64,000 bases of DNA from Escherichia coli (GCF_050320075.1 NZ_CP190018.1), one strand, 5' to 3'; shown: positions 49,334 to 64,000, counted from the stretch's first letter. A program made the numbers and translations. Notes: generated from the sequence alone by a model not told the origin.

Positions 49334-51067
49334 TTACATACGCTCTACTGTCTCAATACCCAGCGTATCCAGACCCAGTTTCAGCGTCTTCGCCGTCAGT
49401 TGTGCCAGTTTCAGACGGCTGTTACGCACTTCTTCGTTTTCTGCGCTGAGGATCGGGCAGTGCTCGTAGAAGCCAGAGAACAGACCAGCCAGATCGTACA
49501 GGTAAGCACACATCACATGCGGCGTGCCTTCACGGGCAACCACGGTGAGGGTTTCTTCAAACTGCAGCAGGCGAGCTGCCAGTTGCGCTTCACGATCTTC
49601 ACGGATGATAACCGGAGCTGCAGCCAGTTGCTCTTCGTCAATTTCTGCTTTACGGAACACGGACAATACACGCGTGTATGCATACTGCATGTATGGCGCG
49701 GTATTACCCTCAAACGCCAGCATGTTGTCCCAGTCGAAGATGTAGTCCGTGGTGCGGTTTTTGGAGAGATCCGCATATTTCACCGCACCAATACCAACTG
49801 CGTTAGCCAGTTTTTCCAGCTCGTCGGCTGGCATATCCGGGTTCTTTTCTGCCACCAGACGACGTGCACGCTCCAGGGCTTCATCCAGCAGATCCGCCAG
49901 TTTCACTGTACCACCCGCGCGGGTTTTGAACGGTTTGCCGTCTTTGCCCAGCATCATGCCGAACATGTGGTGTTCCAGCGGTACGGATTCCGGTACATAG
50001 CCTGCTTTACGGACGATAGCCCACGCCTGCATCAGGTGTTGATGCTGACGGGAGTCGATGTAATACAGCACGCGATCGGCATGCAGTGTTTCATAACGAT
50101 ATTTCGCACAGGCGATATCAGTGGTGGTGTAGAGATAGCCACCATCTTTCTTCTGAATGATCACGCCCATCGGTTCGCCTTCCTTGTTTTTGAACTCATC
50201 AAGGAATACGACGGTCGCGCCTTCACTTTCTACTGCCAGACCTTTGGCTTTCAGGTCCGCCACGATACCCGGCAGCATTGGGTTGTAGAGACTTTCACCC
50301 ATGACGTCATCGCGGGTCAACGTCACGTTCAGACGATCGTAGGTGATCTGGTTCTGCGTCATGGTGATGTCGACCAGTTTGCGCCACATCTCGCGGAAAT
50401 ATTCGTCACCGCTTTGCAGTTTGACTACGTAGTTACGTGCACGCTCGGCAAACTCTTCATCTTCGTCGTAATGCTTTTTCGCATCGCGGTAGAAACCTTC
50501 AAGGTCAGCCAGCTCCATTTCACCGGCGTTTTCTTGCTGCTGCTTTTCCAACCACGCAATCAGCATACCGAACTGAGTACCCCAGTCGCCGACGTGGTTC
50601 GCGCGAATCACTTTGTGACCGAGGAACTCCAGAGTACGCACTGCCGCGTCACCAATAATGGTAGAGCGCAGGTGACCGACGTGCATCTCTTTCGCCACGT
50701 TCGGAGCGGAGTAGTCAACCACAATGGTCTGTTTTTCTGGCGTAGCAACACCGAGACGATCGGACGCCAGCGCCTGCTGAACATGATCAGCCAGGAAGGC
50801 TGGATCAAGAAAAATGTTGATAAAGCCTGGACCGGCGATCTCAACTTTGCTGGCGATACCGTTAAGATCCAGATGAGTCAGCACCTGCTCTGCTAATTGT
50901 CGCGGTGCCATACCCAGTTTTTTAGCAACTGCCATCATGCCGTTAGCCTGATAGTCGCCGAACTGAACTTTTGCTGACTGACGAACCTGCGGTTCGCAAT
51001 CCGCAGGCGCGCCTGCCGCAATCATGGCCTGACGGACTTTTTCTGAGAGAAGAGCCTGAATATTCAC
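49334..51067 (-). CDS. argS: arginine--tRNA ligase
   Basis: 577-aa class I aaRS with HVGH and KMSK-like motifs. Confidence 0.95.
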
Positions 51068-56583: not shown

Positions 56584-58731
<2,148 letters not shown>

Positions 58732-58783
58732 ACAAACTCCCTTTAAAATGGCCGATGGCACCTGTCTATGATAGGTGGCAAAT

Positions 58784-59128
58784 TCAGAAAAGAGAAGATT
58801 GCTGTGGAATAGCCGGAACTGCTCCGATCTCTGGAAGCGTTTTACGTAAGTCTTCCCACAGGGTATGTACCAGTTCCGGGGCCTGGGCAATATCTGGCGT
58901 ATGTAAAAAAAGATAAGGCGTAGTGGTCTGATGCCACTGCGCTAATTTTTGTAACCAGACCTGAAATAATTCCCGGTTTTGCGTCATATCATCACTACCG
59001 ATAAAACGGATCAGCGGATTTGTCGCCGTCAGTACAGCATGTACCGGAACTTTAGGTTTTTTTCGTTGAGCGTCGCGAATAGCTTCACTGTGTGGACGTG
59101 CTGCATGAACCGGGCGGCTGTCTAAAAT
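58784..59128 (-). pseudogene. yecE: yecE 3' fragment (C-terminal ~114 codons); 5' portion displaced by an insertion
   Basis: Translation ILDSRPVHAARPHSEAIRDAQ...QQSSLF matches the YecE C terminus; upstream in frame there is a TAG stop and unrelated AT-rich DNA. Confidence 0.7.
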
Positions 59129-59180
59129 CATCAAGGTCTAAATGCACTACATGGGCACCTAAACATATACATGTGATGTT

Positions 59181-59203
59181 GAGGTGTTAGAAAGGGGGCT
59201 GTT
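59181..59203 (-). terminator. hairpin downstream of the 306-aa minus-strand gene
   Basis: AGGGGGCTGTTCAGCCCCT inverted repeat immediately after the stop of 59219..60139. Confidence 0.35.
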
Positions 59204-59218
59204 CAGCCCCTGATAGAC

Positions 59219-60139
59219 TTAGTAATTATCCCTGACAACTTCATCATATCTTTCAATGAAGGTTAGTTGTTTATTACTTCCATTATAACTATCAACCCAT
59301 TTGTCTACAGCTTCATCGAATAGAAATAAAAAATCCGTATAATTTATATACACTACATTATCATAATATTGGGTTGGGTGACCTCTTTTACATACAGCAA
59401 TACTAAGACGTCTTTCTTTACCCTGAGTAACTTTGTGTGAATTAAGATTAGTCATGTGAAGCAATGAGTTCCTTAATTCATATAATTCGTCGGAAGTTAC
59501 TCCAAGTTTTTGTATATCTGAGTATGTATCTAACCAATTTTGAAAGACTCTTCTTTTGTTTCCAAACTCAATATAAGCTATAGTATCAATAAATGACATT
59601 AATAGCTTGAAGCTTGACAAGTAATGTTTTTTGTTAAACAGAAGCTTTATTGGTTCCATATGGTCATCATTAAGAAGTTCCTTAATGTGAAAACCATCAT
59701 CTTTCATATACTTATCAAGATAGTCTGGCAAGTCTTTTACACCTTCAATGTGATAGTTAGGTGTGTGCTTATTCCTTAATTGCTCTGACATTGATAACTG
59801 AATATCATATTGTAATTTGCCTTTAACAACGGGGGTGACTATAGCTAAAGGGTTTTCAGGTGCATTTTGAGCTTCTAATGCTAATTCAAACGGAGCAAAA
59901 GGATTACCAATCCGCAAATTTGCATTATATCTTTCAAGTGTCAATTTGTCATTTTCTAAAACAGAAGGGTGTATCCCATAAAATAAACGACAAGAAGCTA
60001 AGTCAATCTCCAAATTCCGCTTTAAAAAATCTAATTTTTGCGCATCATCGCCATCATGTTCGTGAGGTACTATTCCGGCATGTGTGATATGAACTCCATC
60101 AGGACTAAAGCAAAATATGTTGTAGATAATCTCTTTCAT
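59219..60139 (-). CDS. hypothetical protein, 306 aa, with RNxxxH (HEPN-like) motif; candidate Abi-type RNase (tentative)
   Basis: Long intact ORF in AT-rich DNA at the island edge; motif R223-N-S-L-L-H228 fits the HEPN R-x4-6-H consensus; no other recognisable domain. Confidence 0.65.
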   Translation of the reverse strand: MKEIIYNIFCFSPDGVHITHAGIVPHEHDGDDAQKLDFLKRNLEIDLASCRLFYGIHPSVLENDKLTLERYNANLRIGNPFAPFELALEAQNAPENPLAIVTPVVKGKLQYDIQLSMSEQLRNKHTPNYHIEGVKDLPDYLDKYMKDDGFHIKELLNDDHMEPIKLLFNKKHYLSSFKLLMSFIDTIAYIEFGNKRRVFQNWLDTYSDIQKLGVTSDELYELRNSLLHMTNLNSHKVTQGKERRLSIAVCKRGHPTQYYDNVVYINYTDFLFLFDEAVDKWVDSYNGSNKQLTFIERYDEVVRDNY

Positions 60140-61249
60140 ACCATTCTAACCTTCAGTGAAAATAAAGTTTTAACTATCATTAGATTATGAACAATCACAA
60201 TTGGCCTGTAAATAACAGGGCATAAACAGGTTCGTTTAGCTTGATTTTATCACTATAACTGTCTGATTTAACGGTAACTCACCAAGTATACACACAGTAA
60301 TTACACAATCCTGTTATTATGTAACTTATTGAAATATATAAATAATTTTTACATTCTTTGTTTGGGGTAAGCTGTGTAATGTTAGTCGTCCCTCTCCAGA
60401 CACTATATATAGTGCTATATACAGGACTATATAACGATATATAGATGTTTGGTCACATGGTATAACTATCAAACCACTTAACGATTTCCTACGTGAAAGT
60501 TAGAAAGTGATAGTTATAGTTACCTTGTCAAATCTTCGTAGTCCCTTCTTAAAAAATCGTGAAAGGTAATCTTGTTATCTATACAGAATCTACGTAGATG
60601 CTTCTTAGTGCGCAAAACAGCTATTATGTTAAAAACGCACTGTATACGTATCAGTACTGATTTATAAGGGTTTTGTGTATTGGCTGATAAGAGGCTATAC
60701 AGCACCTTGAGAGCATGTCTTCTAAGTCATTGACATATAAGGTCACAGAAGTTTGTAGCTGTTACAGAGAAAACTGGATAGGACTTCACAGAACTATAAA
60801 ATGTTACAGCTATTGATAGGTGAAATCTTCTTGATAGATGCTTTGAAGTGTGGTGAAGGCTTTTTGAGGTGGGGCTAAACAGATATCATGAAGAAAGTCA
60901 ATAGTTGATTCGGTTTATCGAATAAACCTCATAGATATTTTAAAATTCTGCAAAGGGGGTCACATAGCTGGTGTGACGGGTACTTAGCAGCTACAGACAT
61001 CTATCAGATATTTTTGAAGATTTTTAGAAGGGGAATTTGAAGAGGGGCTACTACGATTTTATAAAAATTTTCAGATTCTGAAAAGTTACTGTACAGAATA
61101 TGTACAGATATCTTTAAAGTATCTGTAAAAACTTTTAAGATAAAAGATAGATATCCCAGAAAGGATATCCGTTTAGAAAACCTATTAAGTATCTCTTAAA
61201 AGAGAGTAAACCTTGTCAAGAGTGATTGCAATAAAAATTTTTATTTCTT
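60140..61249. other. 1.1 kb AT-rich ORF-free region with clustered short repeats and palindromes (divergent control region, origin or ncRNA locus)
   Basis: No ORF above 61 aa; recurring TACAG/GATAG-containing motifs; palindrome GTCACAtagctggTGTGAC at ~60959..60977; CTATATATAG-type repeats at ~60400..60445. Confidence 0.5.
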
Positions 61250-61912
61250 ATGTCAATTGAGTGTATTTTAATCGGGAAACATCATGGGGGTTCTGATTAC
61301 TGGAGAACTCCATTTTTGTTATTTAAGAACTTACACCGTGAATTTATTTTCAGTCTGGATGGTGCTGCAACTAAGCACGATACGTTATTACCCCGCTTTA
61401 CGGATGATATTCACAATCAGTCATGGGATGGTGAACGGGTATTCTGTAACCCACCATACAGCGACACTAAAACATTCCTCGTAAAAGCGTCTGAGGCAGA
61501 TTTATCGGTATTCCTGATACCGTACCGACCCCAAACCATATACTGGCTTAAGCACATCTTCACAAACCCGCTTTGCCATGAAATCCGTATTCTTCATCGT
61601 GCAGTTAAATACCTTCCACCAGCAGGGCATAACAGGCTTACTATTAGGTCGCCGTTTCCAAGTGCAGTCGTTGTTTTTAAAAAAGAACCACGCAGGCATG
61701 AAATTACGCAGATGGTTTGCTGTGCTGATACATTGCTACCGTTAACCATCATTAACAGAGGAGGCTTGAGAGGAAGGCCCACCATTTACCCACCTGAGAC
61801 GCTCGACAGCTTCATAAAACTATACAGGCAAGGCAAACCCATTAAGTGCATTGCAGATGCTCTCAGAATGCCTCTGAGCACGTCATACAGGATTGCTCAA
61901 AGGTTGAGCTAG
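61250..61912 (+). CDS. phage Dam-like DNA N6-adenine methyltransferase with C-terminal HTH-like segment
   Basis: DYWRTPFLLF ... FSLDGAA ... CNPPYSD (motif IV N/DPPY) typical of phage N6-A MTases; C-terminal IKCIADALRMPLSTSYRIAQRL looks helix-turn-helix; start codon uncertain. Confidence 0.6.
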   Translation: MSIECILIGKHHGGSDYWRTPFLLFKNLHREFIFSLDGAATKHDTLLPRFTDDIHNQSWDGERVFCNPPYSDTKTFLVKASEADLSVFLIPYRPQTIYWLKHIFTNPLCHEIRILHRAVKYLPPAGHNRLTIRSPFPSAVVVFKKEPRRHEITQMVCCADTLLPLTIINRGGLRGRPTIYPPETLDSFIKLYRQGKPIKCIADALRMPLSTSYRIAQRLS

Positions 61913-62276
61913 AATTCTCATAAATATGGTCATTTACAAGACAGGTGATTTAGATATTAAGAGGTATCCCTGTGAACAATAAATGACCAATCAGTAATTA
62001 TCCTGTGAAATAATTGTTGCAATTTATAATCACACATGGTATAGTTTCATAGTGGACTGATAAAAAAGTTCATGTCTTGAAGTGGTAACACTTGGGGAGG
62101 TGTCAGATGATTGACGTATATTAACCTCTCATTCATGGTAATACCTCAGCGTTTTAATCATCGTACTGTTTCAGGCATGGACTTCTTTATCAGTCCATCA
62201 ATCCCCCAGATATTTTAATCACACAGGCTAATCGGTTTTATCCGGTTGGCCTTTTCACGTATGAGGTAATTTATGA

Positions 62277-63245
62277 ATGAAAAAAGAAACTAATGCTTTT
62301 ATTATGGTAGATAAACGAGTTGCACAATTCCCTAAAACATTAAAGCCAATTGACCGCTTGGTATATTTCACTATGCTGGATGGTGCTGATTATTACGAAT
62401 CTAAGTTCGGGAGATACGCACCAAGTATTGACTATTTGATGGTTATGTCTGGTGCTACACGTAATACAGTTATTGATTCACTTAAGAGACTTGAGTCACA
62501 CAGACTTATCGAAAAGACCAATGTAAAGGGTCAGCAAAGTATTTTTAAAGTATTCACGTTGGATGAGCGTCCAGAGGTCTTATCAGAACCTACCCTTGAT
62601 GAGCGTCGTAGAGCTAAATTATCAGGTCAACCAGAATCTGACAGTAACCCAACCAAAAATTGGTTACCTACCCAACCAGAATTTGGTTACCTACCTAACC
62701 AGAATTTGGTTACATGTAATACTGAATATAAAGACAAAAATATAAATACTGAAGAAGAAAGACTAAAAGGGAACTTTGAAGAAGAATCTCTTAAGAAGGG
62801 AGCTTCGCTCTGTGATTCACATGAATGTGATATTAAAGAAGATGACTTTCTTTCTTTGGATGAATTAAATGATTTTCTCTCTATGAATGAATCTGGCCTT
62901 GATAGTGAAGCTACTAAAGAGGCTGTTAAAAAGGAAGATAAAATCTCTGATGTGAATATCGATAGTGACCATAAAAACACACAGTGCCCCGCCACTGATG
63001 ATGAGATGGACCCCTTCGATGATTACCTTGATGAAGAGTCAGAGCGTGAAAAAGCCATTAAGAGGGTAGAGAAGAAAAAGAGATTCGAGCTTGCAAGACA
63101 AAAGAACAAAGTATCGGGTTTAGACCCATTCGATGACAGTGACGATGATGACTTTTCTTTCACACCAAGAAAGAAACAAACTCAGGATGACAAGAAGCAA
63201 AAAATTAAACCGAAGATGTATTTTGCTGGTGGAGGTATGCGCTAA
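62277..63245 (+). CDS. winged-helix DNA-binding protein with long acidic low-complexity tail (replication-initiator/regulator-like)
   Basis: N-terminal ~95 aa resemble phage Rep/replisome-organiser winged helix; C-terminal two-thirds D/E/K-rich with a twice-repeated DPFDD motif. Confidence 0.55.
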   Translation: MKKETNAFIMVDKRVAQFPKTLKPIDRLVYFTMLDGADYYESKFGRYAPSIDYLMVMSGATRNTVIDSLKRLESHRLIEKTNVKGQQSIFKVFTLDERPEVLSEPTLDERRRAKLSGQPESDSNPTKNWLPTQPEFGYLPNQNLVTCNTEYKDKNINTEEERLKGNFEEESLKKGASLCDSHECDIKEDDFLSLDELNDFLSMNESGLDSEATKEAVKKEDKISDVNIDSDHKNTQCPATDDEMDPFDDYLDEESEREKAIKRVEKKKRFELARQKNKVSGLDPFDDSDDDDFSFTPRKKQTQDDKKQKIKPKMYFAGGGMR

Positions 63246-63541
63246 TGAAAGAATATCACGGTGAAAAGAGATACAAAGATTACCTGTTAAAGCGTTATAG
63301 CATTTCTCGTGAAGGCCACTTAATGAAGGATACTCACGGGGAAGTTTACCGGATTAGACCGAAGAAAGAAGGGAGGGATTATTTCTTTTACGATGGTGTG
63401 ACAGATTTAAAGATTGATGCTTTGAAGTTTGCGGCGCTGTATCATTATGATATCTGGGACTCAGTCCACCAGCTACGATTAAAAGACGGTGACCCCGGTA
63501 ATCTGAGGGCCACCAATATTATCAAGGGAAAGTGCCGGTAA
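63245..63541 (+). CDS. small HNH-like endonuclease-domain protein (tentative)
   Basis: 98-aa ORF translationally coupled (ATGA overlap) to the upstream gene; VHQLRLKDGDPGNLRATNI resembles the HNH_3 H-x-DG-x-NL-x-T pattern. Confidence 0.4.
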   Translation: MKEYHGEKRYKDYLLKRYSISREGHLMKDTHGEVYRIRPKKEGRDYFFYDGVTDLKIDALKFAALYHYDIWDSVHQLRLKDGDPGNLRATNIIKGKCR

Positions 63542-63799
63542 GTCCACCAGCTATTTATTTATTGAAATCTCTATCTCAACACGAAGAAGTTTAAGTCGAA
63601 TTGTAAGCTTTGTCTTTTTTGTAATGACTCGATTCATAACGCAAAACACCAATAGCACAATAAATACCGCAAAGCCCAACGAGCTAAAACGATGAGATTC
63701 AATAATTGCTGTGAAAAAATCATGCATTAATTTTCCTTTTGCGAAAGGAAACAGCACCTGTATCAGCCCCTATAACCATAATATCATGTAAATGAGATG

Positions 63800-63828
63800 T
63801 TGACAATATGTTAAATAAATGTTATGAT
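63800..63828 (+). promoter_or_regulatory. near-consensus sigma70 promoter
   Basis: TTGACA-N17-TATGAT followed by AAGGAG Shine-Dalgarno and ATG at 63866. Confidence 0.5.
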
Positions 63829-63865
63829 TGTAGTATGAGTAAGAGATTTAAGGAGATTTTTACAA

Positions 63866-64000
63866 TGACTCACACAGTTACGCGCCTTTTGCCAGAGGCA
63901 TTTGAACGACTGGCAGCAATCAAAGCCAAATATCCCGATATGAAGCACACAGCGCTTGTTGGAGAGCTTTTAAAAGAGTCGGTAACCCTGACCCCTTTCG
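63866..64000 (+). CDS. ribbon-helix-helix-like DNA-binding protein, 5' portion only (runs off window end)
   Basis: MTHTVTRLLPEAFERLAAIKAKYPDMKHTALVGELLKE has the beta-strand then helix pattern of RHH/CopG/antitoxin-type proteins; strong promoter and SD upstream. Confidence 0.4.

Follow-up and report, generated by a model that had tools for sequence, protein, structure and literature searches.

A 64,000-nucleotide stretch of the Escherichia coli chromosome (GCF_050320075.1, NZ_CP190018.1), referred to here in its full length as the window, ends in DNA that interrupts the gene yecE, raising the question of what kind of element has inserted there. Since yecE is already a recorded prophage insertion site, disrupted on integration (PMC3603311), a mobile element in this gene is by itself ordinary, and the interest lies in the nature of the element. 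The inserted DNA proved to be the left part of a 12.2-kb integrative element, and our comparisons make it on balance probable that it belongs to a satellite-like family tied to the virulent Felix O1-like myophages (Ounavirinae), which it would exploit or interfere with.

To define the insertion, we compared the window with yecE of E. coli K-12. The YecE open reading frame (ORF) on the minus strand, at 58784-59130, contains ILDSRPVHAARPHSE and runs to its stop, as a preliminary description of this DNA had proposed. In the alignment, identity stops directly after GGCTGTCTAAAATCA, where K-12 continues with CCCGATTAAC and the window with TCAAGGTCTAAATGC. This fixes the break at 59130/59131, after AAAATCA (59124-59130) and within two bases of the breakpoint of about 59129 given earlier. 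GC content falls across the junction from 0.45-0.48 to 0.31 and then stays at 0.28-0.45 up to the window end, and the foreign DNA next to the yecE fragment has no counterpart in K-12, where the attachment site (attB) in yecE is intact; the low-GC, unrelated DNA of the preliminary description is therefore real. The features of the junction are:

58784..59130, minus strand: 3' fragment of yecE (DUF72), comprising the C-terminal ~115 codons and the stop (ORF listing and K-12 alignment)
59124..59130, no strand: AAAATCA core common to attL and attR, with the serine recombinase crossover site inside it
59131..59150, no strand: attL arm on the element side, TCAAGGTCTAAATGCAC, which pairs as a dyad with the right-end GTGTATTTA once attP is reconstructed
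59131..64000, no strand: left 4.87 kb of the 12.2-kb integrative element, with 7.4 kb more beyond the window

Window positions 58300-64000 are 100% identical to E. coli YZLc1-3 (NZ_CP123240.1) and Ec-U3. In YZLc1-3 the insert is 12.2 kb long (locus L001, 20832-33065; window coordinates equal L001 coordinates plus 38299) and is flanked by two yecE pseudogene halves, between yecN and yecD. The N-terminal half of yecE lies on the far side of the element, outside the window. The recombinase and this 5' half are found 7.4 kb on, in agreement with the earlier view that the other junction and the integrase lay outside the window, and the 7-bp AAAATCA is common to both junctions. No continuous full-length yecE is present, the halves being separated by 12.2 kb, and this flanking of a complete element by split halves supports the proposal that yecE serves as its insertion site. 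Element DNA (any part of the 12.2 kb) was detected in ~500 of 5,426 complete E. coli genomes and the recombinase-yecE junction in 277 of them, so that these are not conserved backbone genes, which upholds their description as foreign to the K-12 backbone; about 5-9% of complete E. coli genomes carry a related element. In another E. coli strain (NZ_CM148361.1), yecE is interrupted at a different position by DNA with a phage bet gene, and the gene therefore hosts more than one kind of insert.

The element begins with E1 (306 aa, minus strand) and a 1.1-kb gene-poor stretch, followed by E2, a Dam-type methyltransferase, E3, a Rep-like protein, E4 (98 aa) and a small hydrophobic ORF on the minus strand. 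Then come E5 (96 aa), E6 (141 aa), E7 (~107-148 aa), E8 (234 aa, coiled-coil) and E9 (72 aa), and finally E10, a tape measure protein (TMP) of 710 aa, E11 (257 aa) and, on the minus strand, a recombinase of 507 aa; the window covers the genes as far as the start of E5. Virion genes could be recognised for only two of the 12 element genes, namely the TMP (E10) and a tube initiator (TI; E11), and no others were found by PHROG, NCBIfam and Pfam scans or by tblastn against a whole phage genome.

Both proteins point to one group of phages. E11 matches the tube initiator gp018 of the Felixounavirus Bas63 (PDB 9ndy_A) with E=2.4e-145 over residues 2-256, a full-length homology, and also matches Pfam Dit_like. 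It is 64-82% identical to its homologue in phage garuso (garuso_119), part of it being ~84% identical at the DNA level. The phage records with homologues of E11, ~300 in all, are exclusively those of Felix O1-like myophages of enterobacteria, including Felix O1, and a scan of one genome per species for relatives of the TI gave no match. E10 matches the Bas63 TMP, gp017, and is most similar to the garuso TMP at its two tips, with ~66% identity over the N-terminal ~45-50 residues and 71% over the last 17 residues against ~35% in the middle; these tips are conserved in every TMP type of the E. coli elements. The TMPs of the elements measure 679-725 aa, against 735-742 aa in the phage. In Bas63, the hub complex consists of the hub, the PA protein, a TI hexamer on the hub, and the C-terminal ~25 residues of the TMP, which touch hub and PA (PMC12609058). 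Given these contacts, the phage-like TMP tips and TI imply that the element owns exactly the inner tail core and retains the parts that dock onto phage-encoded partners.

We considered whether E8 and E9 might correspond to the phage's TMP chaperones, and dropped the idea at this sensitivity, because tblastn of the 12 proteins against a whole Felix O1-like genome matched the TMP and TI only. Matching of the TI to the host was likewise unsupported, as the TI of a Citrobacter element is closest to E. coli SUSP-type phages and not to Citrobacter phages. Two records labelled for other hosts, MG065664.1 ('Campylobacter phage A132') and one assigned to 'Staphylococcus', have Felix O1-type sequences whose identity equals that seen in Salmonella phages, and are probably mislabelled or contaminated.

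The element is linked to the same phages by non-coding DNA, all of it in the gene-poor stretch between E1 and E2:

60934..61096, plus strand: block homologous to the boundary of the Felix O1-like direct terminal repeat, including a 25-nt exact match, GATATTTTAAAATTCTGCAAAGGGG
61132..61189, minus strand: block 86% identical to garuso intergenic DNA (57,722-57,777), in reverse orientation, with a GGATATCC...GGGATATC hairpin
61210..61220, minus strand: motif cTTGACAAGGT, pointing left, towards E1

In a comparison of 1.1 kb with the 86 kb of garuso (E about 1e-11), the first block matches 49,952-50,115 and the second the 57,722-57,777 given above. When compared with all phage records the first block matched 254, all Felix O1-like and always in unannotated intergenic DNA, usually at two places in each genome. 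Terminal direct repeats are present in the records of phages MET-P1-301 (544 nt) and vB_EcoM_D4 (581 nt, exact), and PhageTerm analysis has assigned direct terminal repeats to a genome set that includes D4 (PMC11737134). The MET-P1-301 and D4 repeats both map to a single 1.6-kb region of the phage genome that is gene-free and rich in repeats. The element block straddles the right boundary of the phage terminal repeat, its 25-nt exact match lying 26 nt from the right end of D4, and further conserved blocks are found just outside the repeat. The window position equivalent to the phage terminus is ~60985. The sister element in A3024 (locus L016), without this block, instead matches DNA inside the same repeat (garuso 49,667-49,724). 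The motif cTTGACAAGGT occurs in the phage upstream of three rightward gene blocks. Elsewhere in the gene-poor stretch, a cluster of CTATATA-type repeats at 60404-60450 (ACTATATATAGTGCTATATACAGGACTATATAACGATATATAGATG) resembles garuso 50,433-50,460, which lies beside an annotated phage repeat_region, and is not collinear with the other shared blocks. Enrichment of phage repeat-word k-mers in the element gave a weak signal, confounded by AT-richness, to which we attach little weight.

How the element moves can be read from its ends. The 507-aa recombinase contains Resolvase (PF00239, 4e-19), Recombinase (PF07508, 3e-15) and Zn-ribbon (PF13408, 7e-7) domains in Pfam and matches the PHROG 95 integrase at 2e-79, and the SYIRFSSEKQ near its N-terminus fits a catalytic serine region. 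Identical att junctions were found in 5 independent loci, in which the length between the att sites is 11.4-12.2 kb, and the arms of the reconstructed attP are dyad-symmetric (GTGTATTTA...TAAATACAC). To judge by its domains and these junctions, it is this large serine recombinase at the far end that is shown to have placed the element at a specific site in yecE, and recombinase and yecE att sites together make up a defined serine-integrase system. The exact 30 nt of the attP junction were found once in a metagenome collection, on contig ERZ1090866 NODE_760 (11,473 bp), which is a circular permutation of the whole element across attP, contains no host DNA, and has its ends inside the Rep gene, where the iterons described below lie. 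This contig is direct evidence, in a single instance, for an excised circle or a head-to-tail multimer, although a tandem integrated dimer would look alike. A second contig of unit length (L024) was rejected as an excised form, since it ends 30 nt into yecE at each side and thus represents the integrated form, which is no evidence of excision. Loci in IMG/VR with relatives of E8 lie on contigs of 20-55 kb and not on unit-length circles.

The element also has a replication module of its own:

62277..63245, plus strand: E3, 322 aa, Rep-like initiator, with an N-terminal helix-turn-helix (HTH) and an acidic C-terminal half
62647..62715, plus strand: three tandem 23-nt iterons, ACCCAACCAAAAATTGGTTACCT, inside the Rep gene

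Among PHROGs, E3 finds its matches in phage replication initiators, and its N-terminus is of the HTH_36 type. The iterons are the probable origin of replication, and their position inside the initiator gene is the same as in lambda O. By these features, a Rep-like initiator and the iterons in its gene, the comparisons show the module to be the element's own.

Sister loci have the same gene order, and the pairwise ratio of nonsynonymous to synonymous divergence (dN/dS) is 0.09-0.35 for Dam, Rep, E4, E8, TMP, E11 and recombinase, at a dS of 0.2-0.45. Distinct full-length variants of the TMP number in the hundreds and come from E. coli, Shigella and Salmonella. Modules occur as divergent alleles, the TMP types being 48-58% identical to one another and the two E8 types ~25%. 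Judged by these patterns, the family is maintained and mosaic and not decaying prophage debris. Homologues of E8 are confined to E. coli, Shigella and Citrobacter. In Citrobacter freundii (L030 and L031), a core running from Rep through E8 and TMP to TI sits at another chromosomal locus with a 213-aa orphan where the 507-aa recombinase would be, so that the integration module is exchangeable. In Klebsiella (L027 and L028), we found a different serine-recombinase element of ~10.5 kb that is also in yecE, with a recombinase 48% identical to that of E. coli, a TMP, an invertase and an E1 homologue. Its TMP is 57% identical, over its full length, to TMPs of phages of the Erwinia phiEa104/M7 type, a group that we take to belong to the Ounavirinae as well, in agreement with our search results. 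A further locus (L029) has the same backbone as the Klebsiella element, lies in a gene resembling an ATPase of the type II secretion system (T2SS), and carries Shedu (SduA_C) in the TMP position.

The left end of the element differs between members:

59219..60139, minus strand: E1, 306 aa, HEPN-like, variable cargo, with invariant R223-x4-H228

Across 30 homologues, with identities as low as 31%, the two residues of the HEPN Rx4-6H motif in E1 (R223 and H228) never vary; E1 gave no match in PADLOC. E1 is absent or replaced in sister elements: its position is empty in DJH_183 and is taken in Tig207 by a small serine recombinase of the invertase type, in A3024 by an HNH/AP2 endonuclease. This comparison of members shows the left end to be a slot for swappable cargo. 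In Tig207 (L008, 10922-11000), the invertase cargo ends exactly within the 22-nt core of the terminus-like block, the first half of which is gone; here the cargo boundary coincides with a phage-like site.

Taken together, the element has the general traits of a phage satellite, in that most virion, packaging and lysis genes are absent, it has integration and replication functions of its own, and its sequence ties are phage-specific. We propose that infection by a Felix O1-like phage would cause the element to excise and replicate. Its TMP and TI would then enter phage tail assembly, giving either satellite-specific tails or spoiled phage tails, and the terminal-repeat-like sequence would lead the phage terminase to package element DNA, probably as concatemers. 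The element would thereby spread while the yield of phage falls, with HEPN-like cargo adding a defence of the abortive-infection type. In its most specific form the proposal would be that of a satellite of strictly virulent coliphages which gives its own TMP and TI to rebuild helper tails, is packaged as concatemers through a mimic of the terminal-repeat boundary, and is widespread in E. coli, Shigella and Citrobacter, with a second form in Klebsiella, a 'tail-core-forming' equivalent of the capsid-forming PICIs; this we put forward tentatively, as a possibility that falls well short of probable. Seven units of 12.2 kb amount to 85.6 kb, about one Felix O1-like genome (84-90 kb), whereas seven units of 11.4 kb give 80 kb; since the arithmetic fails for the 11.4-kb members, the concatemer match stays speculation.

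Several observations weigh against a satellite, and some of them favour a non-transducing defence island, an explanation that we consider unlikely while treating it as a serious contender. On that account the TMP and TI would be decoys that enter Felix O1-like tail assembly via their conserved tips and produce defective tails, HEPN-like cargo would add abortive infection, and the element would integrate and might be mobile in some other way but would not be packaged. The family scans recognised neither a small terminase nor a gene for capsid size or any other packaging function, and the attP junction was absent from the viral contigs of IMG/VR when these were searched for it; both facts speak equally for the defence island, as does the defence-type cargo at the left end, whether HEPN-like protein or HNH nuclease. 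The conserved tips, divergent middle and 48-58% identity of the TMP types fit an interference protein in an arms race, and Shedu at the TMP position in L029 fits the TMP as a defence payload. More generally, the tie to the phages is one of sequence comparison alone; the element TMPs are only 28-34% identical overall to that of garuso, and six to seven core genes are orphans. The attP form was seen once only, where a tandem integrated dimer could also have given it. The phage termini were taken from deposited records, which agree only within about 20-60 nt, and L008 has lost half of the 22-nt core of the terminus-like block while L016 has other DNA in its place, so that the element can perhaps do without this core. 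Instead of acting as packaging signals, the shared non-coding blocks could have a regulatory function. As for TTGACAAGGT, we rejected it as a sigma-70 promoter, because neither phage nor element has a convincing -10 box and only the motif is shared. What a purely defensive island would not need are Rep and the iterons and the narrow size range, all of which have been retained, nor would it explain why the phage terminal-repeat region has been copied, as non-coding DNA, in two different versions. To judge by the high synonymous divergence and by insertion at one and the same site in E. coli, Shigella and Salmonella, the element is often transferred horizontally, and interference is in any case compatible with packaging, as known satellites interfere with their helpers too.

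Two other explanations would dispense with a present role in infection or with a satellite altogether. The element could be a generic serine-recombinase integrative element in which the phage genes and sequences are relics of recombination with a Felix O1-like phage; the mosaic family with its free exchange of modules, the different integration module of the Citrobacter relative and the lack of a recognisable function for most core genes are all in keeping with this. Yet every member examined has kept TMP and TI at full length and under purifying selection, although neither protein would be of use in the absence of the remaining tail. TMPs from one phage group are found on two backbones that are unrelated to each other, that of E. 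coli and that of Klebsiella, and the phage-like non-coding blocks have been conserved among members; we therefore regard this explanation as quite improbable. The idea of a decayed remnant of a temperate phage once integrated in yecE draws on the record of yecE as a prophage site (PMC3603311) and on the bet-carrying phage in NZ_CM148361.1, and it appears to us very improbable indeed. All members measure 11.4-12.2 kb between their att sites, with the same gene order (matched stretches elsewhere reach ~14 kb, the larger ones with annotated insertion sequence transposases), their reading frames are intact and under purifying selection, and no capsid, terminase, portal, sheath, tube or lysis genes occur in the 12.2-kb element or in any sister locus read. 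Moreover, strict virulence characterises the nearest phage relatives, for which temperate markers have not been reported (PMC11737134). Between a satellite and a defence island, the replacement of TMP by Shedu and the lack of recognisable packaging genes tip towards the latter, and the former gains from the Rep/origin module, from sizes that vary little, from the two versions of terminal-repeat-like DNA and from a horizontal spread that is evident. We found no description of an element of this kind, nor of any satellite or dedicated parasite of Felix O1-like phages, in open-access papers and bioRxiv, and an earlier one may exist elsewhere.

The other features of the element within the window are:

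60140..61249, no strand: gene-poor regulatory region of 1.1 kb, strongly positive in GC skew and containing numerous repeats of short AT-rich words
61250..61912, plus strand: E2, 220 aa, Dam-type N6-adenine DNA methyltransferase
63245..63541, plus strand: E4, 98 aa, conserved orphan under purifying selection
63551..63757, minus strand: ORF for a small hydrophobic protein of 68 aa (58 aa as called in sister loci), accompanied by promoter-like and terminator-like sites of its own
63800..63828, plus strand: strong sigma-70-type promoter, TTGACA-17-TATGAT, before E5, overlapping a divergent promoter-like site
63865..64000, plus strand: 5' part of E5, which the window end interrupts (complete length 96 aa); its earlier label as ribbon-helix-helix (RHH)-like is unconfirmed

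The GC skew of the gene-poor region reaches +0.36 at 60600-61200, unlike the rest of the element, and its purine-rich strand is the same as in the gene-free repeat region of the phage. An Rfam search of the whole element gave two chance-level matches only, and so no known RNA accounts for this region. The C-terminal ~60 aa of E2 look HTH-like, and E2 gave the sole PADLOC match of the element, to an orphan-methyltransferase model; a Pfam search of E1, E4, E5 and E8 gave nothing significant. The small hydrophobic ORF stands alone on the opposite strand between E4 and E5, with a promoter-like site that divergently overlaps the E5 promoter and a terminator-like hairpin, one of several hairpin terminators in the element, and its product could be a small toxin of the membrane, could act in exclusion or could belong to a switch. 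For E5, a start giving 115 aa was rejected because the extension holds a stop codon in L007; the true E5 has 96 aa, and a dN/dS calculated with L001 from the wrong start is meaningless. Beyond the window, between E7 and E8, there is a non-coding stretch of 570 nt (L001 26860-27330) in which a TTGACA-17-GATGAT promoter-like site is followed directly by a hairpin terminator, which could specify a short RNA or an attenuator. The same stretch has a 28-nt inverted repeat and CTTTTAAG-type words resembling phage leader regions.

Felix O1-like phages, which are common and strictly lytic, find wide use in typing, biocontrol and therapy of Salmonella and E. coli. If the element, present in 5-9% of E. 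coli genomes, does exploit or block them, it would be a strain-level determinant of susceptibility to them and would open a new route by which virulent phages drive gene transfer. It would also be the first satellite known to us that encodes a TMP and a tube initiator, opening the question of why the inner tail core, the channel through which DNA exits, is worth owning. Should it turn out to act in defence alone, the use of structural proteins as decoys would remain uncommon among anti-phage mechanisms.

Among known systems, the closest in mode of action may be the PLEs of Vibrio cholerae, which have a large serine recombinase, a RepA-type initiator with an iteron origin, and a single virulent myophage that they block and use for transduction. 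A large serine recombinase, Rep and iterons are present in the element described here too, and the virulent myophages to which it is tied also form a single group. It differs in host, helper and integration site, and the family scans, the closest comparison made, gave no sequence relation. PLEs remodel capsids and attack phage replication, and their induction and transduction are established; we know of none that encodes a tape measure protein or a tube initiator. The PICMI satellites of virulent Vibrio phages are packaged as concatemers and have a tyrosine integrase, AlpA, a primase and a small terminase of their own, none of which was found in the scans of the element, and they are not known to carry tail genes. 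Like the element, they are small islands living on virulent phages with no genes for capsid remodelling; concatemer packaging is our proposal in the present case. PICMI is reported to package its DNA without capsid remodelling (PMC10803314).

With the classical Gram-negative PICIs and P4-like satellites the element shares a size of 10-15 kb, site-specific integration, its own replication and hotspots of variable anti-phage cargo (PMC9122126). Of the markers of PICIs, the integrase is a serine and not a tyrosine enzyme here, and neither AlpA nor a primase/helicase was matched in PHROGs, NCBIfam or Pfam. The P4-like markers Psu, Delta, Sid and alpha primase had no PHROG or NCBIfam match, and no cos site turned up, no search having been aimed at one. 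Their helpers are temperate, whereas the phage relatives of the element are virulent. It differs in turn from the prophages of yecE in being a 12-kb non-prophage element with a serine recombinase, and complete temperate prophage modules (capsid, portal, terminase, full tail, lysis) were found neither in it nor in the sister loci read. Tai systems, on prophages and satellites, act against phages at tail assembly through small inhibitors that are not known to be homologous to structural tail proteins; they resemble the defence-island alternative in the step at which it would act. The cfPICIs encode part of the virion, their capsids, and borrow tails from the helper. Here, too, part of the virion is self-encoded and the rest would come from the helper, although it is only the inner tail core that the element encodes, everything else being borrowed, and the integration and replication genes are different. 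By analogy with these systems, the element would work most like a PLE, while also resembling PICMI and forming something of a mirror image of the cfPICIs.

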